Source: Acetobacteraceae bacterium
GTDB taxonomy: Bacteria; Pseudomonadota; Alphaproteobacteria; Acetobacterales; Acetobacteraceae
NCBI GenBank assembly: GCA_040400005.1
Contig: JBBARC010000007.1
Span: 17,744 to 81,743, forward strand
Direction of reading: 5' to 3'
Length of the DNA: 64,000 nt
Made by a program: the position numbers and the translations under genes. The notes below the pieces were generated by a model. That model was given only the letters and a program-made list of their open reading frames with translations. It searched no databases and was not told where the DNA came from. This document shows, in pieces, positions 1,983 through 58,190 of the stretch. Every line of letters starts with the position of its first letter. Within the stretch, counting starts at the first letter, position 1.

Positions 1983-2963
1983 ATGGCAGGTTGGTTTCGC
2001 AATTTATTTCCCAAAAAACCAGCGACGCCCGCGCCAATCGCGGCCCCGCGGCCCCGGCCCGCGGCGTTCGAATCGCTGTTCGGCGTGGCTTTGGCCGCCC
2101 CCGCAACCGCGCTCGCCACCCCGGCACTGGCGCTTGCGGTGGATGGGATAGCGGCCAAAGAAACCATCATGATCGCCGGCAATTGCTGTGCCGATAGCCT
2201 GGTTCAAATGTTTCAAACCGATGACCGCCTGCGTGCCCAGTACCGTTTCATCCGGCTAGGCAGTGTGGAAGATCGCCGCCTAACCGACGCCCAAAAAGCC
2301 GAAATTTGCGCGGCGCGCCGGATCGTTATTCAAGATGTCGGCTCCATCGAGGCCAAAGCGATCGAAGCCTGCGTGCCAGATCAGTGCGAAATTATCCGCT
2401 TTCCGCAGCTCAATCTGCGCGCCCTATGGCCGTGGAACTGGCGCATGCTGCCGCCGGCACAAGGCGATACGCTCCTGCCACAAGCACGATTTGTATACTG
2501 CGACACGGCTTTGGAAAGCTTGCGCAAAACCATCAGCGATAAAACCGAATTGCTCGCGGCCTACCGCCAGACACAGCCAACCATGATGCAGACATTTCTA
2601 AAATTGCACGCATTCGATCAGCACCAGTTGCTCGAATACGATGAGATTTACGGCATGACGATTGGCGCTAGGATTTTGGCGGCGGTCCCCGAACGGCAAA
2701 TATTTTATAACCCAAGCCACCCGCACATGATTATTTACCAATGGCTGGGGGAGCATATTTGGGCCAAGCTTAACCTGCCTGGCACCTGCCCGGTGTTCGC
2801 CGGCGGCGATACCTGGCGCCAACACAGCCTGCCGGTGCATCCGGCCGTTGCGGCCCATTTTGGCCTAGCTTGGGCCAACGATGCGACTGTTTACACTAAC
2901 AAGGTGGCGGGTGCAGTAACCTGGGAAGACTACACGCGGGCCTACATCGCCGCCATGGACTAG
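1983..2963 (+). CDS. Hypothetical protein, possibly WcbI-like (polysaccharide-biosynthesis-associated); the start is uncertain (alternative ATG at 2169)
   Basis: 326-aa ORF with normal composition. The N-terminal IAGNCC string resembles the GNCQ start of the WcbI family as I remember it, but the assignment is weak. Confidence 0.55.
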   Translation: MAGWFRNLFPKKPATPAPIAAPRPRPAAFESLFGVALAAPATALATPALALAVDGIAAKETIMIAGNCCADSLVQMFQTDDRLRAQYRFIRLGSVEDRRLTDAQKAEICAARRIVIQDVGSIEAKAIEACVPDQCEIIRFPQLNLRALWPWNWRMLPPAQGDTLLPQARFVYCDTALESLRKTISDKTELLAAYRQTQPTMMQTFLKLHAFDQHQLLEYDEIYGMTIGARILAAVPERQIFYNPSHPHMIIYQWLGEHIWAKLNLPGTCPVFAGGDTWRQHSLPVHPAVAAHFGLAWANDATVYTNKVAGAVTWEDYTRAYIAAMD

Positions 2964-3474
2964 CCGATCAGGCGCATGCCGCCATTATGCCAGCGGCAAA
3001 CATCGAGCATAAGCCTGCGGTTTTACCATTTGATCACCCGTAAAATATCTGCCCGCTCATCGGTCCACAGCACCGGGCCAGGGGCCGGCACATCCCAGCC
3101 ATCGGCGGCAACGGCGCGGTCGCCGAAACCGCCAGAAACGGCGGGCCGATGGTTAGCGTCAGCCTGATCAGTAACCACAATGCCGGCGATCCGCTGGTTG
3201 GCGGGGCGGCCGTGCCAATGGCCAGCGGCAACAGCAAAAACAAATCCCAACACGCAGCATTCAGAAAAACTTGCGTGCGCGACCGCAAGCGATGGGCCGG
3301 TTGAATTTGCGCGTGCCCGGCCGCCCGGCCGCTTGGCGCCCAGTACACACCGTGTTTGGTTTTTTGCCGCGATAAGTAGTTTCCGTGGCTTGGGCGGCAT
3401 GCCGAGTATCGTTAGCTTGCCTCACCCCAACGTCGTTTGCCAATCGCTGCGAGGCCGACACAACAAAGACGCGA

Positions 3475-4872
3475 ATGCCCCATGGAGATGCACCTTTGCA
3501 AATAAAGGCTACAACCGCCGGCCTTGCCCCGACCAATGTGGCCCCGATCAGCCTGGCCCTGATCAGCCTGGCCCTGATCAGCCTGGCCCTGATCAGCCTG
3601 GGCGCTTGCGGAGATCAGGCAAAACTTACGCAATCATCGGGCTACGGTGCCGCACCCGAGCTGCCAGCGCCGCCCCCGACCCTAATCCCCACGCTTAACA
3701 TAGCACCGGCGGTGCGCTGGCGCGAAGGTGGCACCCCGACAGTCGCCCAGGTGGCGGCTGGCGATTTGCAGGTAACCCGGTTTGCCGAAAACCTTGATCA
3801 TCCGCGCTGGCTTTACGTGCTGCCTAATGGCGACGTGCTGGTGGCGGAATCTAACGCACCGCCCAAACCCGAAGACAGCAAAGGCATCCGCGGTTGGGTG
3901 CAACACCTGGCCATGCGGGCGGCAGGCGCGGTAACCGAAAGTGCTAACCGCATCACCTTATTACGATCAACCCGCCACAATGGCATCGCGGACCTGCGCA
4001 TGGTGTTTTTAAGCGGCCTGCATTCCCCGATCGGCATGGCGCTGGTTGGGCGCGATTTTTATGTCGCCGATAGTAACGCACTGCTGCGGTTTACCTACGC
4101 CGCCGGCGCCACCGCCATTCGCACGCCAGCGACAAAACTGCTCGATCTGCCGGCAGGCCCGATCAATCACCACTGGACCAAAAACGTCATCGCCAGCGCC
4201 GATGGCAGCCGCCTTTACGTTACCATCGGGTCCAACAGCAATGTTTTGGAAAATGGCGTGGCAGCCGAAGCGGGCCGCGCCGATATCTGGCAGATAAACC
4301 CCGCCGACGGTACCCACCGGGTGTTTGCCGCCGGCTTGCGCAATCCCAACGGCATGGGGTGGTCGTCCACCGGCAAGCTATGGGTGGCGGTGAACGAACG
4401 CGACGAGATCGGCAGCGATCTGGTGCCCGATTACATGACGGCCGTGGTGGATGGCGGTTTTTACGGCTGGCCCTATTCGTATTACGGCCAGCATGTCGAT
4501 GACCGTGCCAAACCGCCGCGGCCGGATCTGGTGGCGGCGGCCATACCGCCGGATTATGCACTGGGCGCACATACTGCCTCACTCGGCCTGGCGTTTCATA
4601 CTGGCCCAGGTCTTACCGCCGCCTTTGCCGAAGGCGCGTTTATTGGTCAGCACGGATCCTGGAACCGTAACCCATTGAGCGGGTACAAGGTTATTTTTGT
4701 GCCGTTCCGAAATGGTGCCCCAAGTGGCGCGCCGGTTGATATCCTTACCGGCTTTCTTGACCCCTACGGCCGCGCCCAAGGCCGCCCGGTAGGCCTTGCG
4801 ATCGATCCGCAAGGCGCTTTGCTGGTGGCCGATGATGTTGGCAACATGGTGTGGCGGGTCAGCGCGCGGTGA
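3475..4872 (+). CDS. PQQ-dependent sugar (sorbosone-type) dehydrogenase, lipoprotein
   Basis: [29 protein letters not shown] and GSWNR strings fit the soluble PQQ sugar dehydrogenase beta-propeller family. Signal peptide ends in the lipobox LGAC. The ATG at 3475 was chosen; an in-frame GTG at 3538 is also possible. Confidence 0.85.
3541..3605 (+). repeat. 15-bp tandem repeat GATCAGCCTGGCCCT, about 4 copies, in frame (ISLAL)n within a signal peptide
   Basis: Direct reading: units at 3546-3560, 3561-3575 and 3576-3590 are identical; 3591-3605 is partial. Confidence 0.95.
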
Positions 4873-6448: not shown

Positions 6449-7081
6449 GACTATCCTGCGGCTTCAATGGGGGGGGCTGAAGCAGATAATCATCGTTACG
6501 CTAACCACGCAAGCAGGAGCCAGCGTTAAAAGGCTATGGCAGGACGCCTGAACGCGTAACGTGGAGCCGCCGGACTGCATGCAGCAATCGCTGTACGTTC
6601 CAATTTTGCATGAAAGTGTAACGTTTTCGGAGATTTTGCTGGCCGAAGCGCTGTGCTGGCGGATCTTTGGCGAGCCAGAAATAGCAAACCGTAGCAACCA
6701 TTACGATCGTTGCGGTATCGCCGGCATCTCTCCTGCGTCAGCGTGCCGTCGCGCGGCGGCCTTGTGGGTAATCGCCAGCCGGTCAAGATCCATACCAGGG
6801 GGAAGACGGCCCAAGTGTGGCGGAAATTCATCAAAATGGAGAGATGCTGTGTGTTGCAGTCCCCCCTAGAATCAGCGCGATTCGGGCCGACGCAGGCTTA
6901 TTTTAGCGCTTATGGGGCGAAGCCCGCTTAATTTGATCCCCCAAATTCCACCGCGCCAAAAGCCGCAGCCTAAACAGGTTTACCAGTTCGCCCTGATGAT
7001 GACTCTTCCATTATCAAGGCGGGCATCAAGGTGGGCATCAAGGCGGGTTGGTATGCGCGGCCAGGGTTGGCGGGCGGCGGC

Positions 7082-7145
7082 GCGCCAAAAAAAGACTAAT
7101 GCCGACCCGCGTTGGCCCATTCTTCATGGGTCAACACTTAAGCGG
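7082..7145 (+). repeat. Copy A of a roughly 64-bp hairpin-containing repeat (second copy at 53299-53361)
   Basis: GCGCCAAAAAAAGAC...GGCCCAT-TCTTC-ATGGGTC-AACACTTAAGCGG aligns at about 75% identity with the copy at 53.3 kb. Confidence 0.7.
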
Positions 7146-7348
7146 GTTGGTCTTAGAGCCTGATCGCTTGAAGTTGGCGCGGCAGCGATGTGCGTTCAGG
7201 CTCTTGGTGCTCCAGGCCGGGATTAGCAGAACGCCGATAAACGGAATTTGCTGCCGGGGCTGATGCCCTGCCGGCGCCATTGTGCCGGTGCGCCGGCGCG
7301 CAAACCCAGCCCGGCGGCTCGGGCGCAACCGCCCCGGACGTTAAACCG

Positions 7349-10572: not shown

Positions 10573-10600
10573 CGCGGATCAGGATATTTCCTGATCCGCG
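10573..10600 (-). terminator. Intrinsic terminator overlapping the stop codon of the DUF482 gene
   Basis: On the minus strand: CGCGGAUCAGGA-AAUA-UCCUGAUCCGCG (12-bp perfect stem) followed by AAUGUGUUUUUGG. Confidence 0.6.
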
Positions 10601-11754
10601 TTGGTGCCTGCTTCATCCCGCCGATACGGCGAAAGCTGCCGTAAACCTTCAATCTCGGCCGCCACACTGGCACGTTCCTGACCCAGAAAATCGGCTACCG
10701 CCCGACGTAGGCCGTTATGCGCGATCCAATGCGCCGAGTAGGTTGGCTGCGGTAAATAGCCGCGCTGTATTTTATGCTCGCCCTGGGCGCCGGCTTCCAC
10801 CCGCGCCAAACCTTGTATAATGGCAAAATCTAGCGCCCGGTAATAGCACAATTCAAAATGCAAAAACGGGTAATCGCCGGTGCAGCCCCAGTTGCGGCCG
10901 TATAAGGCGTCGGCGCCGACCAGATTAAGCGCACCCGCTACCGGCGTGCCGCGATCATCGGCCAGCATTAAAACCACGGCATCGCCGAGGTAATCGGAAA
11001 GCAGCGGAAAAAACCGATCAGTGAGATAGGCACTGCCCCATTTGCGATCCACCGTGGATTGATAAAACCGGTAAAACGCCACCCAATCGGCAGCGGTAAT
11101 ATCGCCCCCGCGGACATTGCGAAAAGTCAGCCCGCACGATTGCGCATCACGCCGTTCGCGGCGCAAAGTTTTACGTTTGCGCGAGGATAATGCCGCCAAA
11201 AAATCTTCAAAACTGGCATACCCCTGGTTGTGCCAATGGTATTGCACACCCATGCGTTGCAAAAAACCGGCGTCACCCAACGCCGCATACTCATCCTGTT
11301 CGCAAAACGTAATGTGCAGCGAACTTAGCCGCATCTCGCCGGTTGCCTGTACCAAGGCGGCAGCCAACTCCGCACTATCCGGCGCACCGGGCGCGCGCAA
11401 AAACCTGGGCCCCGGCACCGGGCTAAACGGTGAGCACACTTGCAGTTTTGGGTAATAGCGGCCGCCAGCCTGCTCCAACGCGCGGGCCCAGCCGTGATCG
11501 AACACATACTCGCCGTAAGAATGGGTTTTTACGTAGGCCGGCGCACAGGCGACCAATTGGCCTTGCGCATCACGAAACGCCGCGTGCCTTGGTATCCACC
11601 CGGTTTCCGGGCCGGCCGAGCCGCTATCCTCCACTGCCCGCAAAAAACCGTGGCTGACAAACGGGTTTTTGCCGCCGGCACACTGATCCCACTCGGCGGC
11701 GCTTATCTCGGCGATCGCTGCGTGCAGGGTTAGGGAAATAGTTGGTTTTGGCAT
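10579..11754 (-). CDS. FemAB-like/GNAT-fold protein of the DUF482 family
   Basis: WDQCAGGKNPFVSHGFLRAVEDSG...THSYGEYVFDHGWA is characteristic of the family. The start was moved to the ATG at 11754 because the upstream part of the ORF is translated repeat DNA. Confidence 0.8.
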   Translation of the reverse strand: MPKPTISLTLHAAIAEISAAEWDQCAGGKNPFVSHGFLRAVEDSGSAGPETGWIPRHAAFRDAQGQLVACAPAYVKTHSYGEYVFDHGWARALEQAGGRYYPKLQVCSPFSPVPGPRFLRAPGAPDSAELAAALVQATGEMRLSSLHITFCEQDEYAALGDAGFLQRMGVQYHWHNQGYASFEDFLAALSSRKRKTLRRERRDAQSCGLTFRNVRGGDITAADWVAFYRFYQSTVDRKWGSAYLTDRFFPLLSDYLGDAVVLMLADDRGTPVAGALNLVGADALYGRNWGCTGDYPFLHFELCYYRALDFAIIQGLARVEAGAQGEHKIQRGYLPQPTYSAHWIAHNGLRRAVADFLGQERASVAAEIEGLRQLSPYRRDEAGTNADQEIS

Positions 11755-11798: not shown

Positions 11799-11872
11799 AG
11801 AAGAACCTTCTTTTTCTCGAAGAAAAAGAAGCAAAAAGACTTTTATAAGTTTGGGGCGGATTGTGTTCGGGC
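11799..11872. repeat. AT-rich palindromic repeat family, solo arm plus partial core (copy E1)
   Basis: AGAAGAACCTTCTTTTTCTCGAAGAAAAAGAAGCAAAAAGACTTTTATAAG followed by TTTGGGGCGGATTGTGTTCGGG. Confidence 0.9.
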
Positions 11873-11882
11873 TTATCTGCCC

Positions 11883-12347
11883 TCAATCAATCTCTACTAG
11901 CGCTTCCACTTCGATGGGGGCACCTAGCGGCAACGACGCAACGCCTACCGTCGCCCTTGCATGGCGGCCGGCATCGCCAAACACCGCCATCGCCAAATCG
12001 GATGCGCCATTCATGATCATCGCGTGATTGGTAAAATCCGCCGTTGCCGCAATAAACCCACCCAAACGCACAATGCGCGCCACCCGATCCAGATCACCAT
12101 CTAGGGCGGCCGCCATCTGCGCCATCACATTAATAAAACACTGGCGCGCGGCGGCGCGGGCGTCGTCCTCGCTAATGGTACCGCCAAGCCGGCCCTGCCA
12201 GCCAAGCCGGCCCTCAACCATCGGCAGCTGCCCAGATATGGTCAGCAAATTACCCGAAAGCACATACCCCACATAACTGGCAACCGGCACTGCCGGCACC
12301 GGCAAGGTAATGCCCAACGCTGCCAGCCTATCCCCAATCAGGCTCAT
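11883..12347 (-). CDS. ridA: RidA/YjgF-family reactive-intermediate deaminase
   Basis: 154 aa with the typical YjgF fold string ...ARATVGVASLPLGAPIEVEA. ATGA overlap with the upstream gene. Confidence 0.85.
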   Translation of the reverse strand: MSLIGDRLAALGITLPVPAVPVASYVGYVLSGNLLTISGQLPMVEGRLGWQGRLGGTISEDDARAAARQCFINVMAQMAAALDGDLDRVARIVRLGGFIAATADFTNHAMIMNGASDLAMAVFGDAGRHARATVGVASLPLGAPIEVEALVEID

Positions 12348-13843
12348 GCGACCACCCGAAACGCCCGGCGCCTGGCGGGCGGGCTGCTGTCATCTTTGGG
12401 CAGATCTAACGGCAGCAACGGCGCGCGATCGCCGGGGCTGGCGGCGCTGTCATCCACCACATCCGCCGGCGGCGGTGGCAGGGTTTTGCCCAGATACTGG
12501 GCGGCCAGGCTGCGCATGACGTAATCGACGATCGAGGCGGCGTGGGTGACCCCATCGTCACCCTCTACCCGCCCGGCCGGGCCAAACCTGGTGAGCGCCA
12601 GGGCATCGACAAATTCCGCCACTGGCACACCGTGCTGCAAGCCGGTGGTGATGGCTTGGGCAAAGCTTTCGGCCAAGCCGCGCACCAGCGCGTTTTCGCC
12701 GGGCAAGGTGAGCGAGACTTCGCCCAAGCTGCCATCGGCGTAATCGCCGGCGCGTAAAAACAGCCGGTGGCCGCCGACCGAGACTTTGCGGGTAGTACTG
12801 GCGTGACGCACTGGCAGGGGACCTCGCGCGGCATTGGCGGCGGCAACGGCGGTTGCGGGTGGTGGGGCCGGCAAGGCCACTGGTGGCGCTGGCATGGCGC
12901 TTAAGTATGGGGCCACCGCCGCGTGCATGGCGGCGTGGGCGGCCAGATCGGCAATTTCGACCACCCTATCCCCCAGCAACGCGTGGGCGAATGCTGCTTC
13001 TGCGGTGATGTGGCGGGATGCGAGCCTGGCGCGGGTGGCATCGGTTAGCTGCGGTTTATCGGCACTGCCCGGCAGTACCAGTGCGTAGGCCGGCGCAATG
13101 CCGCCGGTTTCTACGCCCAGCAACGCATCGGCGGCGGTGGGCGCGAAAATGCCCGCACCCAAAGCCGCATCTGGGGCGCGCAACAAGGCTGATCGGGCTG
13201 CACTTGCTGCCTGCGCCAGCCCGCTAATGGCGCAATCACCCGGCGGCCACGGCCAGTTTGCCGCGGCTGCGAGCAGATCTAGCTGATCACCGTCCAGGCC
13301 ACGATCGACGGCGGCACGAAACAAGGCGGCAAGGCAGGCGGCGGTTGCCCGCGCGCAAGGCTGGTCGTAGGCGAGGCCCAGGGACGCCAGCACATCATCC
13401 AGCCCGGAAAAACCGATTTCGCGGTTTTGGCCGGCACCATCCCATTTTTTTGTGGCGTGGGCGGCCACCCGGGCAGCATCGGCAAAGCCGGTGATATCGA
13501 ACCCAGTGTCGGGGCTGAAAAATGCCCGCAGGTTAAGCACGAACCCTGGCACCCCTGGGGCATTTTGCCAGATCACCGGATTGGCGGTGGCCCGCCGGCT
13601 GATCAGTAACTGGTGCAGGGCGGCATCGAGTGCCGCATCGCCCGCCGCGATGGGACCGATCCAGGCTTGCGCTGCCACGGGTAAATTCACCGGGCCATCG
13701 CCCGGCACCAAGGCTGCTATCGCGTTGGCCGCGGTATCATCCCAGCTTGCCGGGAGGGTGACCATTCTCTGCGCGCAATCAGGATCGGCGCTGGCCGCCA
13801 CCTGCCGCATCCGCACACCTTGCCACAGCCTGAGATTTTTCAT
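12344..13843 (-). CDS. Truncated class II ribonucleotide-reductase-like protein (TSCPD-type C-terminal domain)
   Basis: The C-terminal GGHRLFLRAGDYADGSLGEVSL...GLQHGVPVAEFVDALALTRFGPAG...AASIVDY is collinear with the NrdJ C-terminal domain. Residues 95-180 resemble an RNR barrel segment. Only 499 aa. Confidence 0.7.
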   Translation of the reverse strand: MKNLRLWQGVRMRQVAASADPDCAQRMVTLPASWDDTAANAIAALVPGDGPVNLPVAAQAWIGPIAAGDAALDAALHQLLISRRATANPVIWQNAPGVPGFVLNLRAFFSPDTGFDITGFADAARVAAHATKKWDGAGQNREIGFSGLDDVLASLGLAYDQPCARATAACLAALFRAAVDRGLDGDQLDLLAAAANWPWPPGDCAISGLAQAASAARSALLRAPDAALGAGIFAPTAADALLGVETGGIAPAYALVLPGSADKPQLTDATRARLASRHITAEAAFAHALLGDRVVEIADLAAHAAMHAAVAPYLSAMPAPPVALPAPPPATAVAAANAARGPLPVRHASTTRKVSVGGHRLFLRAGDYADGSLGEVSLTLPGENALVRGLAESFAQAITTGLQHGVPVAEFVDALALTRFGPAGRVEGDDGVTHAASIVDYVMRSLAAQYLGKTLPPPPADVVDDSAASPGDRAPLLPLDLPKDDSSPPARRRAFRVVA

Positions 13844-13967
13844 GGGAACCAGTGAAGCACCAAACCCGCGACTCGGAAACAGGTATTTTGCGTGTCAACC
13901 GGGGTTAGCCCACTAAATGTTGTGGATAACCTGCGTGGGGGCGGTGAAAGCGGGTGAATGCAAAAAA

Positions 13968-14112
13968 GTAAGAATTTTCTTTTTTCTGAAGAAAAAAGAA
14001 ACAAAAAAGACTTTATTGATGTTTTGTTCGGAAGACGCGGTTGCAGGGTTGCCCCAGGCCCGGCGTATAAAAGTCTTTTTGCTTCTTTTTCTTCAGAAAA
14101 AAAGTTTCTAAC
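13968..14112. repeat. AT-rich palindromic repeat family, complete copy (E2): arm, GC-rich core, inverted arm
   Basis: GTAAGAATTTTCTTTTTTCTGAAGAAAAAAGAAACAAAAAAGACTTTATT ... core GTTCGGAAGACGCGGTTGCAGGGTTGCCCCAGGCCC ... TATAAAAGTCTTTTTGCTTCTTTTTCTTCAGAAAAAAAGTTTCTAAC. Confidence 0.95.
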
Positions 14113-14197
14113 TTTCAGCCGATTGCCCGGTTAAAAGCGCCGCAGATTGCCCACGCTTCACTGGACCATCGCCCGCGTTCTGCCTATATGCCAAACC

Positions 14198-14566
14198 ATG
14201 AGCATTGGCACCACTTTGCATACCTTCCTGCATGGCAGCCCGGTGGGCCGCGATGCCGCTGGCAACGCCTATTACCAAGCGCGCCGCCTGCCGCCTGCGG
14301 GTGAGCGCCGGCGCCGTTGGGTGATTTATGCGGGCGAGATTGATAGCACCGCGGTGCCGGCCGAATGGCATGCCTGGCTGCATTATACGACCGATGCGCC
14401 GTTGCCCGACACCGGCCGCAAACCCTGGCAGAAAACCCATATCGCCAACCAAACCGGCACGGCGCAGAGTTATCGCCCGCCCGGCCATGATTACGCCGGC
14501 GGCACCCGCGCGGCATCGGGCGGCGATTACGAAGCCTGGACCCCCGACACCCCCGCCCAAGGCTAA
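14198..14566 (+). CDS. NADH:ubiquinone oxidoreductase subunit NDUFA12-family protein
   Basis: G.D..GN.YY......RRWVIY.G..D.S.VP.EWH.WLH pattern. ATG at 14198. Confidence 0.85.
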   Translation: MSIGTTLHTFLHGSPVGRDAAGNAYYQARRLPPAGERRRRWVIYAGEIDSTAVPAEWHAWLHYTTDAPLPDTGRKPWQKTHIANQTGTAQSYRPPGHDYAGGTRAASGGDYEAWTPDTPAQG

Positions 14567-22527: not shown

Positions 22528-22542
22528 GGGCCAGGGTAAGGC

Positions 22543-22662
22543 TAAGACTCTTTTTTTTCTGAAGAAAAAGGAGCAAAAAGACTTTTATTACGCTGGGACT
22601 GGGGCTGCGATGCCACCGCGAATCCCGGCCCGACATATAAAAAGTCTTTTGCTTCTTTTCTT
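22543..22662. repeat. AT-rich palindromic repeat family, copy E3 (left arm, core in inverted orientation, proximal part of right arm), interrupted by a MITE
   Basis: TAAGACTCTTTTTTTTCTGAAGAAAAAGGAGCAAAAAGACTTTTATTA ... core ... TATAAAAAGTCTTTTGCTTCTTTTCTT. Confidence 0.9.
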
Positions 22663-22852
22663 GTAACTGCCCAGGTAGGGGTGAGAACGCTAACTGCCTC
22701 AAAAAACTCAACTCTCGGCGCGCAGGCCATTACGTTACCGACGCAAACTGTCCCTTTTTCGGCAGTTTGCGTATCGAAACCAGACCTAAACCCGAAGTCG
22801 CCATAAATGTTTTCAATGGGTTGTGTAGCTTCGACCCTACCTGGGCAGTTAC
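22663..22852. mobile_element. 190-bp MITE with perfect 18-bp terminal inverted repeats and an 8-bp target-site duplication
   Basis: Left end GTAACTGCCCAGGTAGGG (22663-22680). Right end CCCTACCTGGGCAGTTAC (22835-22852). Flanked by CTTTTCTT at 22655-22662 and 22853-22860. Removing the insert plus one TSD restores the intact repeat arm seen at 28351-28387. Confidence 0.85.
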
Positions 22853-22882
22853 CTTTTCTTCAGAAAAGAAGGGTCTTGCCGT
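22853..22882. repeat. Distal remainder of the right arm of repeat copy E3
   Basis: CTTTTCTTCAGAAAAGAAGGGTCTTGCC matches the ends of other arms. Confidence 0.85.
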
Positions 22883-27428: not shown

Positions 27429-28246
27429 GCCGCGCCATCACAACCGCCCGGCCGGGTAAAGCGATGGCGACCGCTGCCCTTACCATTGCGGCTGGTGCTG
27501 TGTTGCTGTTCCTGGTTATACCCATCGCCATCATCCTGGCGTACGCGTTCTCCGCCTCTCCCGTGCAAAGCTGGCCAATTCCCGCCTTCACGCTGCACTG
27601 GTTCACCGATACTTTCGCCGATGAAGAGATCCGTGCAGCATTCGTTCTATCAGTACAGGTCGCTGCCCTTTCCACTGTGATCTCGCTCGTGCTTGGCACA
27701 CTGGCCGCTTTCGCTGTCAGCCGGATGCAATCCGCCGCCCGTGAGGCGGTTTCCTTCGTGCTTATTCTGCCCATTGCGTTGCCAGGTATCCTCACCGGTA
27801 TGGCGCTAAACGCTTATTTTGTGGCGATCAACATGCCACTAAATTTCACCACAATTGTCATTGGCCACGCCACTTTCTGCATCGTTATTGTTTACAACAA
27901 TGTCCTTGCCCGGTTGCGCCGCCTGCCCCGCAGCCTTGCCGAAGCCTCCGCCGATCTAGGGGCCAGCCCGGCCATGACTTTTCGCCGCGTATTGCTGCCC
28001 ATGCTTGCCAGTGCCATCGGCGCCGGCGGGCTGCTGGCCTTCGCACTCTCGTTTGATGAAGTCATTGTCACCACCTTTACCGCCGGCGTGCAAACCACAC
28101 TACCCCTATGGATCCTCGGCGCCATTCGCCTCGGGCAACGGCTGCCAGAAGTGAATGTGGTGGTTTTCTGCGTTATTGTTATGACGCTTATTCCCGTATT
28201 TCTGGCGCAGCGGCTTATGGGAGATTCGGGGAGTTTGCATAAATAG
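27425..28246 (+). CDS. ABC transporter permease (PotC/YdcV-like)
   Basis: Multi-TM protein with the EAA loop LAEASADLGASPAMTFRRVLLPM. ATGA overlap with the upstream permease. Confidence 0.85.
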   Translation: MSRAITTARPGKAMATAALTIAAGAVLLFLVIPIAIILAYAFSASPVQSWPIPAFTLHWFTDTFADEEIRAAFVLSVQVAALSTVISLVLGTLAAFAVSRMQSAAREAVSFVLILPIALPGILTGMALNAYFVAINMPLNFTTIVIGHATFCIVIVYNNVLARLRRLPRSLAEASADLGASPAMTFRRVLLPMLASAIGAGGLLAFALSFDEVIVTTFTAGVQTTLPLWILGAIRLGQRLPEVNVVVFCVIVMTLIPVFLAQRLMGDSGSLHK

Positions 28247-28250
28247 AAGC

Positions 28251-28387
28251 AGGAACTTTCTTTTTCTGAAGAAAAAGAAACAAAAAAACTTTTACTAATT
28301 GGGTTCGGAATTCGCGGTGGCAGGGAAGCCCCAGGCCCAGCATAATAAAAGTCTTTTGCTTCTTTTCTTCAGAAAAGAAGGTTCTTC
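28251..28387. repeat. AT-rich palindromic repeat family, complete copy (E4)
   Basis: AGGAACTTTCTTTTTCTGAAGAAAAAGAAACAAAAAAACTTTTACTAA ... GGTTCGGAATTCGCGGTGGCAGGGAAGCCCCAGGCCC ... ATAAAAGTCTTTTGCTTCTTTTCTTCAGAAAAGAAGGTTCTTC. Confidence 0.95.
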
Positions 28388-28400
28388 ACCTTACCTTTTT

Positions 28401-29360
28401 CTAAAACTTCAAAGCACTACCAAGCCAAGTGCTGTGGGTGGCAAGCGCCGGGACAACCTGTGTTTGCAGCGCCAGGCGTGCGATAGCGGCAAGCCTATCG
28501 GGTGCGCGGCCGAGTTCTCTGGCGCGAGCGATGAGGGTTAGCGTGCGGGTGAGGGTTGGTGTGGTTAGGCGGTGGATATCCACGGCGGCGAGGGGCACGC
28601 CGGATTCGTATAGGCACAGGGGTGTGGTGATGGCAAAGCCTAAGCCGCGCGCGACAGAGTCTGTCAGGCCCAGCGGTGTTTCGAATTCAAGTGTGCGGGC
28701 GGGTTCTAGGCGCAGGCGGCGCAGGTGGCGTTCTATTTCTATGCCAGTGCGGCTGCGGCTGGCATAGCGCAGCATGGGCAGGCGGGCGGAAATTTCGGCC
28801 AGTGTAACTGGGCCGGTGTGTTTTGGGCAGATGAATACGTAGGGTTCGCGGCAAATCGGCAGGCGCACCACGGCGGCGAGATCGGCTTGTTCATCGGCGC
28901 CTAAAAACACATCTAGGCGGCGGGTGAGCAGGGCGCTGGCATGGTCATCGGTTAGGCCGGCGCGGAAGGTGGCGTGGTCAGCGAGCTGGCCAATTTCGGC
29001 TGCCAGCGCGCCGGTGACCGCGCGCGAGAGGCTATCCACCAGGCCAATGCGCAGGGTTGCCACCCGGCCATCGCGGGTTTGGCGCATGAGTGGTGCGATT
29101 TGGCGGGCATCATCCAGCAGGGCACGGGCGCGTTCGAACAGCACCAGCCCGGCGGCTGTGGGGCCTAGCGGGCGGGTGCGGCGGTCTAGCAGGGTAAGCC
29201 CGCTTTTACTTTCCATATCGGCGATTGTTTGCGAAACAGCAGGCTGGGTAAGGCCCAGGGCGCGGGCGGCGGCCGACATGGTTCCGCTATCGCAGACGGC
29301 CAGAAACACTTCAAGGCCACGCAGATCAAACGGTAAGGGCAGGGGGGTGGGTGTTTCCAT
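28401..29360 (-). CDS. LysR-family transcriptional regulator, divergent from the sox operon
   Basis: N-terminal HTH LEVFLAVCDSGTMSAAARALGLTQPAVSQTIADME. Confidence 0.9.
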   Translation of the reverse strand: METPTPLPLPFDLRGLEVFLAVCDSGTMSAAARALGLTQPAVSQTIADMESKSGLTLLDRRTRPLGPTAAGLVLFERARALLDDARQIAPLMRQTRDGRVATLRIGLVDSLSRAVTGALAAEIGQLADHATFRAGLTDDHASALLTRRLDVFLGADEQADLAAVVRLPICREPYVFICPKHTGPVTLAEISARLPMLRYASRSRTGIEIERHLRRLRLEPARTLEFETPLGLTDSVARGLGFAITTPLCLYESGVPLAAVDIHRLTTPTLTRTLTLIARARELGRAPDRLAAIARLALQTQVVPALATHSTWLGSALKF

Positions 29361-43674: not shown

Positions 43675-43678
43675 TAAA

Positions 43679-43797
43679 AGGGTCTTCTTTTCTGAAGAAA
43701 AGAAGCAAAAGACTTTTATCATGTGGGGACGGGGGGACAGCTCGCCGGCGGGTGCTGGGATGCCTGCTTAAGAAAGTCTTTTTGCTTCGTTTTCTCC
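43679..43797. repeat. AT-rich palindromic repeat family, copy E5 (left arm and core; right arm decayed)
   Basis: AGGGTCTTCTTTTCTGAAGAAAAGAAGCAAAAGACTTTTATCA ... core ... TTAAGAAAGTCTTTTTGCTTCGTTTTCTCC. Confidence 0.85.
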
Positions 43798-43869
43798 AGG
43801 ACACGGATGGGCTTGCGGCGTCTCTTCGTTCTCACTTGTGCTGCTATCTATTTCGGTTGGTTTTGTATT

Positions 43870-45422: not shown

Positions 45423-45476
45423 ATAAAACCAAAAGTTCTTTTGTTTCTTTTTCTTCAGAAATAGAAAATTCTGACC
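45423..45476. repeat. AT-rich palindromic repeat family, solo arm (E6)
   Basis: ATAAAACCAAAAGTTCTTTTGTTTCTTTTTCTTCAGAAATAGAAAATTCTGACC. Confidence 0.85.
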
Positions 45477-45481
45477 TTCCC

Positions 45482-47692
45482 CTACCTGTGCGTCAAAACC
45501 CTGACCAGCTCAGTGGTCGTGCCCAATGTTGTGATTTTCAGCACAGCACTAAGCACAATAGGATAAGTGCCCGTGGCAAGGCTCGCGGGCACCGTCACGC
45601 GCCCGGAAAATTCATTGGTGGCGCGGCGGTAAGTCAGGCATTGCGGGGCGGCGCCACCGATGGTGGCGGTCACCGCGCAGCTGCCCAAGGATCGCGCCAG
45701 GGTTTCGGTGATCGGCGTTGCGCTGGCATCGGCCAGTTGCAGGCTAACCGTCACAGTATTGCCGGCACGCACGGGTTTGGCCGGGGGCGGGGCAAGGTTG
45801 GTCAGCGCCAGGCCGACCACATAAGTCAGGCTGGCGGTGCCGGTGGTGCCAGCGGTGTTGGTGGCGGTACAGATCAAGCTTTTGGCACCTAGCATGGTGG
45901 CATCGGGCGGCGCGCAACTGGCGCTGGCAATGCCGGACAGGCTGGCGGCGGGGTTGGCCGCGGCGGTCACAACTGCGCCGAGCAAGGGTTGGGCCGGGGT
46001 GATGGTTGGGGTGAGCGCTGGTATGGCGCTGTCTATGTTGATGGTGGCGAGGGACGCCGCACTGGTGGCGCCGGCGGCATCGGTTGCTGTGCAAGAAACG
46101 GCGTTGGCCCCGGGGGTGGTAACTAACACGGCGGCGTTGGCCGCTGTGGTGGCGATGCCGGTTGGTGCGGCAAGCGTCGCACCAGTGCATTGCAGGCTCG
46201 CGATGGTGCTGGTGGACGTGCTGGCGGCAAAGCTGCCGGTAACCGGGCTTGCGGCAAACCAGCCACTTGCGGGTGCTGCGGGCAGGCTAAGCGTCGCGGC
46301 AGGCGGCACCGCCGCTGGCAGGTTCACAATGGCGGTAAAAACATCGAAATTGGTGGCGCCGTTGGGGTTGTCGCCGGTGCTGTTGGAATTATCGGCCCAC
46401 GCCGGCACCAGGCGGCCGTTGGCAAAGGCGTTGCCGGTGTAATCACCGTAATCGGCTTTTTTAAACGCGGCGATGCTATTGGCCTGGTTAGACGTGCCAG
46501 CGCTGATCAAAAAATTGGCAGAAAAACTAGCACCACCATCGGTGCTGAAACTGCCGGCGTATTGGGCTGTATTGTTCAGCGGCGCATTGCGTGCATCGTA
46601 CCAGGTAACGGCCACGGCACCGGTGGATTGGTCCAGCGCAATACGCGGCAGAAACTGGCTGTTGGCGGTGGCATCATCGTTCACCCGCACAGGGTTGTGC
46701 CAGGTGACACCAAGATCATCGGATGTGGTGACAAAGATATTGGTATCTGGCCCGCCGGGGGCGGTGGCATCGGTATAAACCAAGTAGACACGGCCGCGGT
46801 GGGGGCCGGTTGTGCGGTCTATCGCCAGGCCTGCTTCGGGGTCGATGCCCCAGTTGGGTTGGGCGGGGATATTAGTGAAGCCGCCCAGGTTGGTGGCGGC
46901 CACTTGCACCGGCGGGTTGAAAGGCGCGGCGCCTAACCCGTCGGGGTCGGTTTGGGTATAAATGGTGCCGCCGCTGCCGCCCGAATTGGGGCCGTAGGTG
47001 ACAATCGCTTCGCCCGCAGGGCCCACTGCGATATCGCCAAAGTTTACCCCCACCGGCTGGCTCGGCAGCAATTGCGAAGTAAACGCACCGACCTTGCCGG
47101 TGCCGGTCACGGCAGCCGAGGACACCGCGATGCCGCCCTGGGTAAAATAGGTCAGCCACACACTACCTGGCGCGCCGTTGCTGCCCGGGCCAACGGCCAC
47201 TGTCGGCTGGTCGCCCGCCAGCGGCAGGTTGGTTGCTGGCAGCAACAACACAGGGGCTGTGCTGACCGGCGATTTGAAATTTTGGCCGCCATCAGTGCTC
47301 AGCGCGAGGCCGACGTAGCTGGCAGAACGGGTGGACCCTTGCACCAAATAGGTGATGAACAAATTGCCAAAACTGTCCCAGGCAAGGCTCACGTTACCAT
47401 AAGCGCGCGGCAGGTCGCCGGCGGCGGGAATAGGCGAAATCGCGATGATTTTGTGTGCCCAACTGATGCCGGCATCTCTGCTGTGGGCGATCGCCAGGCC
47501 GCCGGTTTCGTTGCGGGCGGCAATAAACATTTCTGTGGGGTCGGCAGGGTTTATGGCGACCGCGGGTTCGTATTGGTTACCAGGCGCTTGGGATAGGTTG
47601 ATGTTGGGGCCAACAACGGGCGCAGTTTGGGCGAAGGCGGGGGCGATGGCGGTTATGGCGATGCAGGTGGCCAAAAGGGTTTTTTTAAACAT
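45482..47692 (-). CDS. Secreted BNR/Asp-box repeat (sialidase-fold) protein with Ala/Thr-rich Ig-like C-terminal region
   Basis: Signal peptide. Asp-boxes SRDAGISW, STDGGQNF, SDDLGVTW and STDGGASF. Confidence 0.75.
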   Translation of the reverse strand: MFKKTLLATCIAITAIAPAFAQTAPVVGPNINLSQAPGNQYEPAVAINPADPTEMFIAARNETGGLAIAHSRDAGISWAHKIIAISPIPAAGDLPRAYGNVSLAWDSFGNLFITYLVQGSTRSASYVGLALSTDGGQNFKSPVSTAPVLLLPATNLPLAGDQPTVAVGPGSNGAPGSVWLTYFTQGGIAVSSAAVTGTGKVGAFTSQLLPSQPVGVNFGDIAVGPAGEAIVTYGPNSGGSGGTIYTQTDPDGLGAAPFNPPVQVAATNLGGFTNIPAQPNWGIDPEAGLAIDRTTGPHRGRVYLVYTDATAPGGPDTNIFVTTSDDLGVTWHNPVRVNDDATANSQFLPRIALDQSTGAVAVTWYDARNAPLNNTAQYAGSFSTDGGASFSANFLISAGTSNQANSIAAFKKADYGDYTGNAFANGRLVPAWADNSNSTGDNPNGATNFDVFTAIVNLPAAVPPAATLSLPAAPASGWFAASPVTGSFAASTSTSTIASLQCTGATLAAPTGIATTAANAAVLVTTPGANAVSCTATDAAGATSAASLATINIDSAIPALTPTITPAQPLLGAVVTAAANPAASLSGIASASCAPPDATMLGAKSLICTATNTAGTTGTASLTYVVGLALTNLAPPPAKPVRAGNTVTVSLQLADASATPITETLARSLGSCAVTATIGGAAPQCLTYRRATNEFSGRVTVPASLATGTYPIVLSAVLKITTLGTTTELVRVLTHR

Positions 47693-47870
47693 GGTGAGGT
47701 GGTGCTTTCCCGCGTGTGACGACGACATCCCCGTCGTTATGCGGCGATGCTGACCACAGCCTGACGGGGATAGCGGGATCGCTAAAATGTGAAGTACTCT
47801 TGTGCACGAGCGCTTTTCCCCCGCCCCACCCGGCGCGCTGGCAGACGGTAGTGCCTCTTCGCTGCCATCA

Positions 47871-47920
47871 TATCAGAAGTCTTTTTGTTTCTTTTTCTTC
47901 AGAAAAGAAAATTCTTACTT
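47871..47920. repeat. AT-rich palindromic repeat family, solo arm (E7), same orientation as E6
   Basis: TATCAGAAGTCTTTTTGTTTCTTTTTCTTCAGAAAAGAAAATTCTTACTT; abuts the cca stop codon. Confidence 0.85.
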
Positions 47921-49094
47921 ACCCCGTGCGCTGCAAAATATGAGCCAAATACGCTCGGCAGCCGTGCGCATCGGCGGTACAGCCTGCCGCCAGCCACCAG
48001 GCACGCACTTGCGCCAGTACTGCCCCAATGGCGGGACCAGGCGCGGCGCCAAGGGCGAGGGCATCGCGGCCGGCGAGCGGAAAAATCGGGGTTTTGGTGG
48101 CGGCGATGCGGGTGGCCAGGGCCACGCTTGTGGTAGCATCGGCAGCGGCGAGCCAAGCGCTGCCGATAACGATATCTTTGGTAAAGCCTGCCAGAAGGCG
48201 GCGCAGGTCGGCATCTGACATGCCGGGTGTTGGCGTGGGGGTTGTGCGCAGGGCGTGCAGCCGGTCGGCCTCAGCACGGGAGAATTTTAGGCGTTCGGCA
48301 AGGTTTGTATCGTTGCCGGTAAACAGGGCTGCCAGGCGCAGGATCGGATCAGCCGGGGCGGGTTTGGCGAGCAGATCGGCAAGGGTTTGCCGGCTGTAGG
48401 CTTGCGGCAGCAGGGTATCGAGCACGCCCAGGCGTTGCATCAGCGTGATGGCAGCCAGCGGGGATTGGCTCGCCAGCAGGGCGCGCAGTTCCGACCAGAC
48501 TCGTTCCACCGACAGGGTATTCAGTGTGGCGGCGGCGCTGGTGATGGCGGCTGTTGTGTCGGCGGTGGGCGGCGTTGCGCCAAACCGCGCGTAAAAGCGG
48601 AAAAAACGAAGGATACGCAGAGCATCTTCGGCAATGCGCAAGCTGGGGTCGCCAACAAAACGCAGGATACCGGCCTGCAAATCGGCGATGCCGCCAAAAT
48701 AATCGTGCACGGTGCCGTCCGGCGTTGCCGACATGGCGTTGATGGTGAAATCGCGGCGGGCGGCATCTTCGCGCCAGTCATCTGTCCACGCCACCACGGC
48801 GTGGCGGCCATCGGTCAGGATATCGCGGCGCAGGGTGGTGATTTCAAAACCATGGCCCTGGGCGATGGCGGTGATGGTGCCGTGCGCGAGGCCGGTGGGG
48901 ATGGCGCGCAGGCCGGCGGCCTGCAGGCGGGCGGTGACCGCATCGGGGGGATCGGGGGTGGCGAGGTCGATATCGCCTGGGGCAATACCAGCCAGGCAAT
49001 CGCGCACGGCGCCGCCGACCAGCCGGGCGTTGGGCAGGGCGGCCAGCACATCGGCAAGGCCTGGGGTTTGCGGGATCGTTATACGGGAGGTCAA
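47919..49094 (-). CDS. cca: CCA-adding tRNA nucleotidyltransferase / poly(A) polymerase family
   Basis: LVGGAVRDCLAG...DIDLAT...GLAHGTIT...TTLRRD motifs. Confidence 0.85.
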   Translation of the reverse strand: MTSRITIPQTPGLADVLAALPNARLVGGAVRDCLAGIAPGDIDLATPDPPDAVTARLQAAGLRAIPTGLAHGTITAIAQGHGFEITTLRRDILTDGRHAVVAWTDDWREDAARRDFTINAMSATPDGTVHDYFGGIADLQAGILRFVGDPSLRIAEDALRILRFFRFYARFGATPPTADTTAAITSAAATLNTLSVERVWSELRALLASQSPLAAITLMQRLGVLDTLLPQAYSRQTLADLLAKPAPADPILRLAALFTGNDTNLAERLKFSRAEADRLHALRTTPTPTPGMSDADLRRLLAGFTKDIVIGSAWLAAADATTSVALATRIAATKTPIFPLAGRDALALGAAPGPAIGAVLAQVRAWWLAAGCTADAHGCRAYLAHILQRTG

Positions 49095-53298: not shown

Positions 53299-53361
53299 GC
53301 GCCCAAAAAGACGCCCCACGGCCCGTATTGGCCCGTTCGTCGCGGGTCAACACTTAAGCGG
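53299..53361 (+). repeat. Copy B of the roughly 64-bp hairpin-containing repeat (see 7082-7145)
   Basis: GCGCCCAAAAAGAC...GGCCCGT-TCGTC-GCGGGTC-AACACTTAAGCGG, between the convergent mltA and speE ends. Confidence 0.7.
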
Positions 53362-53368
53362 ATCAGTA

Positions 53369-54235
53369 TTACGGCAGCAGTTTTGCGATATACGGCGGCA
53401 GATTAAAACTGCCGGCATGGATCTCGGGCGTCCAGTATTGGGTGGTGCCCAAAATGCCCTGGCTTGCCGCGCGTTCGCGAATGGTGGCAACGGTTTCGCC
53501 GCCGATCGGCGCCGCCCCTTTGCCGGCGACGCCCAGGGTCATGTAGCCGCCCACATAGGTCGGCACGGCTAGCACATAGGCAGTAACGCTGGGAAAAAAC
53601 GCCCGGCGCCGCGCACTGGTGTCGCGCAGCTCGACATCCTGCATAAACGGCACGCCGCACTGGTTCACCACCAGGCCGTTGGCGGACAGGATGCGCGCGC
53701 AATTGGCATAAAATTCATCGGTGAACAGCACTTCACCAACCCCAATGGGATCGGTACTATCAACGATAATCACGTCAAAACTTTCGGCCGGCGCCTTTTT
53801 CACATAATCGATGCCGTCGCCAACAATCACATCGGCGCGCGGGTCGGTCCAGGCGCTGCCGCCGATATTGGGCAGGTATTCTTTCGACAGGCGGATCACA
53901 TCGCCATCGATTTCCACCATCACCGCTTTTTCAACGCTGCGATGCTGCAGCACGCGTTTCAGCACGCCGCCATCGCCGGCGCCAATAATCAGCACGTTTT
54001 TGGCCGCCCCATGCGCCAGCAGCGGCACGTGGGCGATCATTTCCTGATAAACGAACTCGTCCCGTTCGGTGATTTGAATGCAGCCATCCAGCACCATCAC
54101 CCGGCCATGCGAGCTGCTCTCAAAAATCACGATATCCTGAAAATGGCTCTGCACGCGGGCCAACTCGCGGGTCACCATAAAACGCTGGCCCCAATCGGGG
54201 TACAAAGTTTCGTTCAGCCAGATATCGGTCGCCAT
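53369..54235 (-). CDS. speE: Spermidine synthase (polyamine aminopropyltransferase)
   Basis: VLDG..Q.TERDEF.YQEM..H.PL and VLIIGAGDGG motifs. Confidence 0.9.
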   Translation of the reverse strand: MATDIWLNETLYPDWGQRFMVTRELARVQSHFQDIVIFESSSHGRVMVLDGCIQITERDEFVYQEMIAHVPLLAHGAAKNVLIIGAGDGGVLKRVLQHRSVEKAVMVEIDGDVIRLSKEYLPNIGGSAWTDPRADVIVGDGIDYVKKAPAESFDVIIVDSTDPIGVGEVLFTDEFYANCARILSANGLVVNQCGVPFMQDVELRDTSARRRAFFPSVTAYVLAVPTYVGGYMTLGVAGKGAAPIGGETVATIRERAASQGILGTTQYWTPEIHAGSFNLPPYIAKLLP

Positions 54236-58000: not shown

Positions 58001-58190
58001 ACAAGGCGCAAACGGCGGCAAGCACCGTGCCAATCGGTATGCAAAAAGGGCGTAAGTGGCGCCTCCATACGCAAAAACGGCGCCAGTGGCGTTTCCATTC
58101 GCAAAAACGGCGCCAGTGGCGTTTCCATTCGCAAGAACGGCGCCAGTGGCGTTTCCATTCGCAAGAACGACGCCAGTGGCGCCCGGGCAT
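55032..58190 (-). CDS. Large (1052 aa) exported or membrane-anchored protein of unknown function, coupled to cheZ. It has a basic repeat N-terminus, a TM or signal segment, a Pro/Gln-rich linker, a beta-rich middle and an Ala-rich helical (TPR-like) C-terminus.
   Basis: Longest ORF in the region. Its ATG overlaps the cheZ stop (TAATG). Hydrophobic segment IPIGTVLAAVCALLAAAPVVAAP. No family recognised. Confidence 0.65.
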   Translation of the reverse strand: MPGRHWRRSCEWKRHWRRSCEWKRHWRRFCEWKRHWRRFCVWRRHLRPFCIPIGTVLAAVCALLAAAPVVAAPAGAVAGPAVDVSAPAASGDGQSPQSAGQLLFVRHDSGGFTTARHGDALSLTLPGAGQVGRLKAALPSGITNLTSFIGSAIITLAPGAQADVSQTNRTIIVRITTPAAMPVLTAQVSPAAPPPPTVAAIMVPPTPARPEPSGSEPSRSDPSRPEPARADTTPPPPSPQQPQQPQQPQALGAVRLADATLGGPAFLLPYGIEVGAAAYLRGGVAYLIFDQPDPIDLSPLRDDRFFGSATKISLRSATLIDIPVPPGHMLRLVRRPDGWVCVLSEQTSLSEPITATTRDGAMHLLTSDANAIVVVPDRLTGAQLLIGTQRGDAQNIAAPRHMADFTLLRTALGVAVQPFADRVALTTGRGGFTIASTGAVPLALVDGDSGSTLLPGSAMTRRFDLPDLPVAALRARAAITLAEVAGTPALARAGARTRQALGLLALGLGHDALAVLDIATSEDPTLAADPQTPALQAIAAWLAGRPQTATPFAAASLGHTDDIDFWRAITTPDRDTTAADSAIADATHASQAALTGTLAQLWPLALTYPQALRARLLPAIVDRLAPGPLAALVAAADQFAHANNQPPPSNLAYARARVAMLAADHAPTGAPAPGNAANNAANNAASNATADVRLGAAIYGPDRRDAARARLAKVLRDHAQGRLNTAAAAAALDATLFAWRGDETELAARLALAGLAAENGAWRQALTALRQAEILYPQSLPKLRRAEHDVLVKLAAAGTAATISPFDLVALLDDNADLLAIDDTAQALAPLLLDRLMALDLPARARPIMARMLAAATGPAVRADLGNRLAQLALDQSNGPGALAMLAATEPANPAGMSTPQANARSLVRARANSSTGDFPAARQALANTTDTAALDMRAEMESDQQDFAAARQSLTQLLAAIVPPAGMIPKPAEDIVLRLAAATAQSRNKAALAALHREWAGRFSPGPHADLFAVITETTVATPTDLPRAATELAASRAASANLGADLVRAH
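58041..58190. repeat. 30-bp tandem repeat, 5 copies (3 near-identical, 2 degenerate)
   Basis: GCAAAAACGGCGCCAGTGGCGTTTCCATTC at 58071, 58101 and 58131, with flanking degenerate units at 58041 and 58161. Each unit contains the dyad CGCCA-G-TGGCG. Confidence 0.95.

Follow-up and report, generated by a model that had tools for sequence, protein, structure and literature searches.

We analyzed a 64,000-nt stretch of the Acetobacteraceae bacterium assembly GCA_040400005.1 (contig JBBARC010000007.1, positions 17,744 to 81,743 of the forward strand; hereafter, the window), in which an earlier note had described an AT-rich repeat of nested palindromes, with seven dispersed copies between genes. The seven AT-rich islands are genuine copies of one repeat of about 140 bp (Table 1). 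A 22-mer from the arm hairpin (≤3 mismatches) has seven matches in the window, against 0.00 expected from 100 dinucleotide shuffles, and a gapped 25–29-nt arm pattern likewise has seven matches, against 0.00 in shuffles; the arm motif was found at all seven of the places where the note had put it. A repeat finder retrieved the same direct and inverted families, and nhmmer, run with a profile of nine window arms, returned 11 arms at seven intergenic loci. Our own gene calls, made with a self-trained codon model, likewise leave every copy between genes, and the lysine- and phenylalanine-rich open reading frame (ORF) at 13917-14111 is present and is, as had been proposed, an artefact of the repeat. 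The GC content of the window is 60.5%, not about 64% as first given; arms have 20–30% GC, cores about 65%, and whole elements 36–50%.

The copies can be placed relative to the neighboring genes. At 11.8 kb, the repeat lies between the stop of a YjgF-like gene (11883-12347, minus strand) and the start of a FemAB-like gene (10579-11754, minus strand), and its arm palindrome reads CTTCTTTTTC-tcgaa-GAAAAAGAAG (11807-11831). The 14.0-kb copy occupies the divergent gap between a TSCPD protein gene (12344-13843, minus strand) and an NDUFA12-like gene (14198-14566, plus strand). The 22.6-kb copy starts 14 nt past the stop of a TetR-family gene (gene end 22527), the 28.3-kb copy fills the convergent gap between the stops of an ABC permease gene (28244-28246) and a LysR-family gene (28401-28403), and the 43.7-kb copy begins 4 nt past an aminotransferase stop (43674). 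The cores at 14.0 and 28.3 kb are 73% identical in the same orientation, and the 22.6-kb core matches only when reverse-complemented (71% vs. 55%), a polarity opposite to that of the 28.3-kb copy; core polarity is thus independent of the arms, as previously described. The 43.7-kb core has no clear relation to the other window cores. As a separate observation, the region upstream of the TSCPD gene (13850-13925) includes the conserved palindromic boxes TTATCCACAACATTTAGTGG and CGCAAAATACCTGTTTCCGAGTCGC, which are common to orthologous promoters at three other loci (L117, L118, L119) and which may resemble NrdR-type operators.

Table 1. Copies of the repeat and the element inserted into one of them (positions count from the first nucleotide of the window; TIR, terminal inverted repeat; TSD, target-site duplication; MITE, miniature inverted-repeat transposable element).
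Feature	Position	Strand	Parts and remarks
Solo arm plus about half a core (outer to inner on the plus strand)	11799-11872	+	nhmmer arm 11801-11849 (+)
Full element, two A-type arms	13966-14115		Arms 13966-14018 (+) and 14066-14115 (-); 65% GC core 14018-14065
Interrupted full element: left arm, core, and inner right arm	22541-22662		Arm 22541-22592 (+), nhmmer
Nested, unrelated 190-bp MITE in the right-arm hairpin	22663-22852		Perfect 18-bp TIRs GTAACTGCCCAGGTAGGG; 8-bp TSD CTTTTCTT at 22655-22662 and 22853-22860
Rest of the interrupted element's right arm (outer part)	22853-22882	-	nhmmer arm 22851-22879 (-)
Best-preserved full element	28247-28391		Arms 28247-28297 (+) and 28341-28391 (-), nhmmer
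Full element, decayed right arm, divergent core	43678-43801		Arms 43678-43723 (+) and 43773-43801 (-, decayed)
Solo arm	45427-45479	-	Outer end 3 nt from the stop of gene 45482-47692 (-)
Solo arm	47870-47921	-	Outer NAAG tract shares bases with the TAA stop of a CCA/poly(A) polymerase-family gene (47919-49094, -)

The repeat extends well beyond the window. An arm-pattern scan of species-representative genomes yielded at least 114 loci, nearly all from Acetobacteraceae or from “Rhodospirillales” metagenome-assembled genomes (MAGs), and the family-wide counts given below rest on 866 kb of such loci. Named isolates that carry the repeat are Gluconacetobacter liquefaciens, G. tumulicola, G. aggeris, Neokomagataea thailandica, Endosaccharibacter trunci, Roseomonas sp. 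GC11, Pseudoroseomonas aestuarii, and Rhodovarius crocodyli, and carriers were also found among MAGs labelled Rhodovastum, Acidocella, and Asaia. In the 866 kb, the profile detected 304 arms, which comprise 103 convergent pairs (modal length 131–145 bp) and 98 “solo” arms, many of which are still followed by a core. The presence of copies at many Acetobacteraceae loci by both pattern scan and profile removes the doubt that the earlier note had put first, namely that the repeat might have no further copies.

Occupancy is patchy, ranging from zero to about one element per 2 kb. Some lineages have the element in the majority of their larger intergenic regions. Locus L118 (21.5 kb, from genome OZ240673), which was chosen by protein and not by repeat, holds about 11 elements, filling most gaps of ≥60 nt. 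A plasmid collection yielded two weak, unannotated Pseudoroseomonas matches. No close relative of the window organism has been sequenced; proteins identical to its own are confined to short Logan contigs, and the nearest further homolog of the 499-aa TSCPD protein has 66% amino acid identity. Two of the Logan contigs from the window organism (L115, L116) end exactly inside an element, and the repeat fragments short-read assemblies.

A full copy measures about 135–145 bp: an AT-rich arm (about 50 bp) is followed by a core with about 65% GC and then by the arm in inverted form. Each arm is made up, from the outer end inward, of two to four NAAG units, 3 nt, an AT-rich palindrome, and a CAAAAAG(A)CTTTT segment. 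The arm does carry its own hairpin, as had been claimed: a 10–11-bp palindrome centered on GA, which is perfect (10/10) in 259 of 301 arms. There are two arm types, A (CTTCTTTTTC-TGAA-GAAAAAGAAG, then CAAAAAGACTTTT) and B (GTTCTTTTTT-GA-AAAAAAGAAC, then CAAAAAACTTTT). With 55 of 102 typed pairs being A+B, asymmetric arms are usual in other genomes, and A+A pairs are restricted to the window. A5-6 and T4-6 tracts, read off the sequence, repeat every ~10–11 nt along the arm.

The arm palindromes vary in a compensated manner. Stems occur as CTTC/GAAG, GTTC/GAAC, GTCC/GGAC, and CTGC/GCAG, and among 58 distinct arm 24-mers, 97.6% of cells are paired, with seven of the 10 pairs varying on both sides. 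Both-side changes are found in 92 cells, compared to 26.5 in shuffles, a value that none of 500 shuffles reached; slid controls are only 67–81% paired. T·G and C·A stem mismatches are about equally frequent (17 vs. 16). Pairing within the arm (99%) exceeds pairing of the same segments between arms (71%), which suggests that the local arm palindromes, and not the long stem, are maintained. The element had been described as able to fold either as one long stem or as several hairpins, and of these, the data favor local arm hairpins as the maintained unit.

Inverted symmetry continues ~11–12 nt past the hairpins, the inverted arms measure ~45–50 bp, and whole elements fold as one long hairpin (-47 to -60 kcal/mol, z -4.4 to -6.7); solo arms fold no better than shuffled sequence. 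The segment between the two palindromes starts with CAAAAAACTTTT, ends with AAAAGTTTTTTG, and folds significantly (median minimum free energy -25.8 kcal/mol, median z -3.6, z < -2 in 86%). Together, these ends and this fold mean that the center of the element reads A-tract, hairpin, T-tract in both directions. The GC-rich core is a sequence-variable hairpin, which drifts freely provided that pairing persists.

Placement relative to genes, based on the codon-model gene calls, is very tight for the arms that face stop codons. Of 291 arms, 195 have an outer end that faces a stop; the median distance to profile position 1 is 1 nt, with 8–13 nt separating stop and stem and 18–23 nt between the final base of the stop and the hairpin center. 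Start-facing arms lie at broad distances (median 56 nt). The stop codon usually consists of the T before the purine tract and the first two purines (TAAG, TAGG, TGAAG). Genes that run into an arm end in TAA (63), TAG (47), or TGA (43), and the other genes at the same loci in TAA (108), TAG (139), or TGA (375), such that TAA and TAG together make up 72% next to arms vs. 40% elsewhere (chi-square 58.7, p=1.8e-13). Full elements number 50 in tandem gaps (498 available), 37 in convergent gaps (119 available), and 6 in divergent gaps (113 available); they are enriched in convergent gaps and depleted in divergent ones. Within tandem gaps, A-B orientation is unbiased with respect to transcription (13 vs. 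17).

The sharply peaked distance from stop to hairpin, the overlap of the stop with the NAAG tract of the arm, and the excess of TAA and TAG could all be taken to mean that a hairpin 8–13 nt past the stop meets the terminating ribosome and so influences how translation terminates, how ribosomes are rescued, or how mRNA decays. Such effects were reportedly described for Escherichia coli repetitive extragenic palindromic (REP) elements ≤15 nt from the stop codon by Liang, Rudd and Deutscher (2015). However, one third of the arms face gene starts or non-coding DNA, copies exist in divergent gaps, and the arm hairpins are weak AU stems that, as solo arms, do not fold above shuffles. We consider a translation-coupled regulator improbable.

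The same placement data, combined with the anatomy, can be read at the level of DNA, as a protein-binding or topological site similar to bacterial interspersed mosaic elements (BIMEs). Here, curved DNA or cruciforms at gene ends would be bound by IHF, HU, a MucR-like protein, gyrase, or another dimeric protein, and might, for example, absorb supercoiling between convergent genes. The conserved part is indeed a perfect, duplex-symmetric 22–24-bp palindrome with an invariant center, which pairs within arms much more than between them, has no strand asymmetry in its mismatches, and is accompanied by A/T tracts at ~10–11-nt intervals; enrichment in convergent gaps and orientation-independent placement are also as such a site would have them. 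The compensated stem variation (CTTC, GTTC, GTCC, CTGC), however, fits a structure better than base-specific recognition, and the fixed spacing of ~10 nt from stops is left unexplained, which makes a DNA-level site a rather unlikely reading, albeit a better one than ribosome coupling.

To assess the history of the repeat, we compared copies within genomes and at orthologous sites. Like the window cores, copies at separate loci of other genomes have core features in common: within OZ240673, GCTGTCGCGGAC adjoins arm A at different loci, a shared core oddity. In a Rhodovastum MAG (L079), the arm-B hairpins at 2200-2260 and 6835-6900 both have an insertion of ~14 nt that is GC-rich (e.g., AAAAAAAAGGCGCCGCGCCCGCGGAACC), and the recurrence of this insertion at two loci suggests a propagated subfamily. 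Core identity within one genome reaches 91%, and no two of the copies seen are identical. In three genomes (L006, L079, L110), the elements downstream of a shared 4.5-kb gene have differing, genome-typical cores. G. liquefaciens (L014) is empty at a site that is occupied in L060, and L117 (66% amino acid identity) and L119 are empty at both orthologous window sites, with the element almost wholly missing from these loci.

Other comparisons document persistence. An orthologous copy fills the entire convergent gap in both L028 and L031 (78% nucleotide identity), and throughout the OZ240673 clade (L118, L120, L121, L122; 98.5–87.5% identity), elements are at the same sites. The sole loss in this clade came about by imprecise deletion of 210 bp between GCTGAT repeats. 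We looked for clean filled-versus-empty sites and found none among the window relatives, whose intergenic DNA cannot be aligned because the nearest homolog has only 66% amino acid identity, or in the OZ240673 clade. Altogether, the comparisons point to a copy-and-paste origin plus turnover, yet stable persistence, on different time-scales.

The ends of the element were evaluated for signs of how it moved. The earlier note had seen no obvious TSD, and flanking direct repeats of 94 full elements are indeed not above shuffled controls. The dinucleotide TA lies near the boundary in 70% of flanks that face a stop and in 38% of the others (background 15%), but its occurrence on one side does not correlate with that on the other (Fisher p=0.53), and it is therefore no duplication. 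We therefore rejected a TA-targeting (IS630/Tc1-like) MITE, which the TAAG/TAGG arm starts had suggested: the TA mostly comes from stop codons, the sides are uncorrelated, and no TSD of any length rises above the shuffled controls. The outer consensus, (NAAG)2-4 then 3 nt, has no column for a GTAG or CGTC tag. A tblastn search of 988 kb of loci with an E. coli YafM probe found one REP-associated tyrosine transposase (RAYT; L019 2587-3081, E=7e-54), whose flanks carry GC-rich GTAGGGTGGGGTGC... REPs instead of the AT-rich arms. This speaks against the repeat being the REP-doublet hairpin element (REPIN) of a RAYT, as the only RAYT found in these loci adjoins another kind of REP, GC-rich and GTAG-tagged. 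An IS630-family copy in L119 was rejected as a parent because its TIRs are unrelated, and no autonomous insertion sequence (IS) with matching ends turned up in the loci examined, without a systematic genome-wide search. Readings as attC sites, DNA uptake sequences (DUS/USS), or LexA boxes were dismissed for unfit motif and/or gene context.

In its own right, the L019 region (2560-3180) has a RAYT gene 50% identical to the YafM probe with inverted GC-rich GTAG REPs, GTAGGGTGGGGTGCTCTTCCGCACCCCACCC, on both sides. Classic REP/RAYT systems thus occur in one Acetobacteraceae MAG at least.

Could the repeat be a purely selfish, non-autonomous mobile element, REPIN-like or a TIR-MITE? The arms would then be kept for a transposase acting in trans or by gene conversion, and the position near stops would be a tolerated insertion. 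Inverted arms around a spacer are REPIN/MITE architecture, and genome-specific subfamilies, cores that differ between genomes at one orthologous site (L006, L079, L110), patchiness among lineages, lack of orientation bias with respect to transcription, and symmetric mismatch types all agree with this. It is opposed by the lack of a TSD, of a GTAG/CGTC tag, and of any autonomous parent seen (the only RAYT belongs with another REP, and the L119 TIRs do not match), as well as by the history: no identical copies, no insertion polymorphism over a clade that spans 12% nucleotide divergence, and an imprecise deletion as that clade's single loss. Furthermore, the distance to the stop codon is far tighter than mere tolerance predicts. 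A selfish element is doubtful, though we hold it to be the strongest of the alternatives considered here.

One copy was itself a target of insertion. The copy at 22543-22882 had been called interrupted, which is correct, and we can add that the interruption is a separate, unrelated MITE (Table 1). In silico removal of its 190 bp restores a perfect arm hairpin. Neither the window nor the 119 fetched loci hold a further copy of this MITE. Insertion may be favored at the arm hairpin.

The arms evolve slowly. Between L118 and L122, arm identity is 87.8% (n=443), compared to 79.5% at third codon positions, 73.7% in other intergenic DNA, and 65% in cores (Fisher p=1.4e-5), and four further ortholog pairs have arm identities of 71–88% vs. 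53–63% at third positions. Orthologous copies also show compensation in place, e.g., CTTC/GAAG vs. CTGC/GCAG, and T5/A5 vs. T6/A6 by single-base insertions. Being slower than synonymous sites and compensated in their palindromes, the arms are unlike a neutral remnant, and this suggests a probable function or a recognizing protein. The arms are kept either by selection or by gene conversion among copies; the core drifts.

We next compare the repeat with known classes. Like REP, BIME, and REPIN elements, it consists of high-copy, short extragenic palindromes (here, 22–24-bp arm palindromes, 304 in 866 kb) that form inverted doublets around a spacer with a potential larger hairpin (here, the 103 convergent pairs), concentrate in convergent gaps and at the 3' ends of genes without a TSD, and persist vertically for long periods with a conserved repeat and a variable spacer. 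Unlike REPs, which are GC-rich and species-specific, the arms are AT-rich (20–30% GC) in a 60% GC genome and near-identical across a family of genera; they are also perfect palindromes, normally of two types (A and B) per element, and have no GTAG/CGTC. A REP survey found CGTC-tagged REPs to be missing in Acetobacteraceae (PMC3733652), and Group 1 RAYTs have been described as rare in Alphaproteobacteria (PMC5581495).

Among TIR-MITEs, the closest parallel is the Correia element (CREE/NEMIS) of Neisseria. These elements are likewise non-coding, intergenic, and ~100–160 bp long with long TIRs, and are likely co-transcribed with their neighbors, with the long hairpin as a would-be RNase III-type substrate. 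The Correia element makes a TA duplication and has 26-bp TIRs that start with TATAGTGGATT. In contrast, the repeat studied here has no TA or other TSD, no related IS that we found, and no recent near-identical copies, and its arms contain their own perfect palindromes and are unrelated in sequence to Correia.

Bidirectional intrinsic terminators share the center of the element (CAAAAAA-CTTTT...hairpin...AAAAG-TTTTTTG in both directions), the position right after stops, and the convergent enrichment. They differ in that the consensus scan is negative here, the base of the stem is AU-rich, two additional AT palindromes are conserved, and the sequence is shared over hundreds of loci.

Database searches did not assign the repeat to a known class. 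In the window, Rfam 15 at the gathering threshold gave 0 matches and ARAGORN gave nothing, and permissive Rfam searches returned only generic AU-rich long hairpins far below threshold. Those to the plastid psbA 3'-untranslated region stem-loops (RF04343/RF04344) resemble the repeat only in being generic, AU-rich inverted repeats downstream of a coding region, and homology was rejected (23–30 bits vs. gathering thresholds of 48–56). String and keyword searches found neither the sequence nor a description of such an Acetobacteraceae repeat in the papers covered. With no Rfam match at threshold, no tag, and no TSD, we are likewise unable to place the repeat in a named REP, BIME, enterobacterial repetitive intergenic consensus (ERIC), or MITE family. 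Because it fails as a REP/REPIN (no tag, no RAYT link seen) and as a TIR-MITE (no TSD, no parent IS), it appears to be its own family among bacterial interspersed intergenic palindromic repeats. It would work most like REP/BIME elements, and the family has probably not been described previously.

Other repeats were seen along the way. In the window, 58041-58190 holds five tandem copies of a 30-bp unit, GCAAAAACGGCGCCAGTGGCGTTTCCATTC (70–100% identical), and 3521-3601 holds ~5 copies of a tandem 15-bp repeat, GCCTGGCCCTGATCA, and variants, probably a peptide repeat if coding. Two 67-nt copies at 7089-7155 and 53305-53371 (75% identical, AAAAAGAC...GGCCC.TTC.TC..GGGTCAACACTTAAGCGG) may be a small repeat or a structured RNA, and have no Rfam match at the gathering threshold. 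The OZ240673 genome has further repeats (L118 14613-14758 and 930-1562), including a GC-rich long palindrome, GGCCAGGGGCTCTGCCCCTGGACCCCGCTGG..., and in L118, inverted CACGAAGG-rich blocks flank one AT-rich element within a probably spurious 210-aa ORF with no Pfam match.

Altogether, this is a real, ancient, family-wide palindromic repeat with a three-hairpin anatomy, which abuts gene 3' ends and in which the arm palindromes are maintained. Our preferred reading, to which we assign a probability of roughly 0.45, is that it is an old, now mostly immobile REP/BIME-like repeat that has been retained as a putative orientation-independent 3'-end module. From the comparisons of copies and flanks, we infer that it would have spread anciently by a copy-and-paste mechanism that leaves no target duplication, and would then have become essentially immobile, fixed beside gene 3' ends. 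From the architecture of the center, we infer that the A6-hairpin-T6 may act as a bidirectional terminator or as a hairpin that protects, and so stabilizes, 3' ends. Sequence constraint would fall on the two arm palindromes, which would be recognized either as hairpins or as palindromic duplex.

Several points weigh against this 3'-end module. A simple consensus terminator scan calls none of the central hairpins, and, beside the T-tract, the stem begins with AU-rich pairs (CUUUU/AAAAG), unlike the stem of a typical efficient intrinsic terminator. The core alone folds weakly (median z -1.4). A terminator model also leaves unexplained why the outer AT palindromes, and not the central hairpin, are conserved, and that conservation could reflect gene conversion among hundreds of copies instead of selection at the level of the host. 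The near-equal T·G and C·A counts do not mark a single transcribed strand as the selected RNA. Finally, some copies are in divergent promoter regions, such as the window copy at 13966-14115, and the same NDUFA12-TSCPD gap also carries an element in the OZ240673 clade.

A bolder version, which we offer as speculation with the odds clearly against it, is that the repeat is a host-maintained cis-module at gene ends, in which a putative dedicated protein reads the two non-identical AT palindromes and thereby defines transcript or topological boundaries across the family. If true, the module would be a sequence-specific, protein-dependent gene-end signal that was spread by transposition and then domesticated genome-wide. 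The Acetobacteraceae include industrial acetic acid bacteria as well as many environmental lineages, and in their genomes the element creates spurious ORFs, shifts apparent stop codons, and breaks short-read assemblies. Because there are cultured carriers, such as G. liquefaciens DSM 5603, Rhodovarius crocodyli CCP-6, Endosaccharibacter trunci KSS8, and Roseomonas sp. GC11, the repeat offers a tractable route to how dispersed palindromes become gene-end signals.

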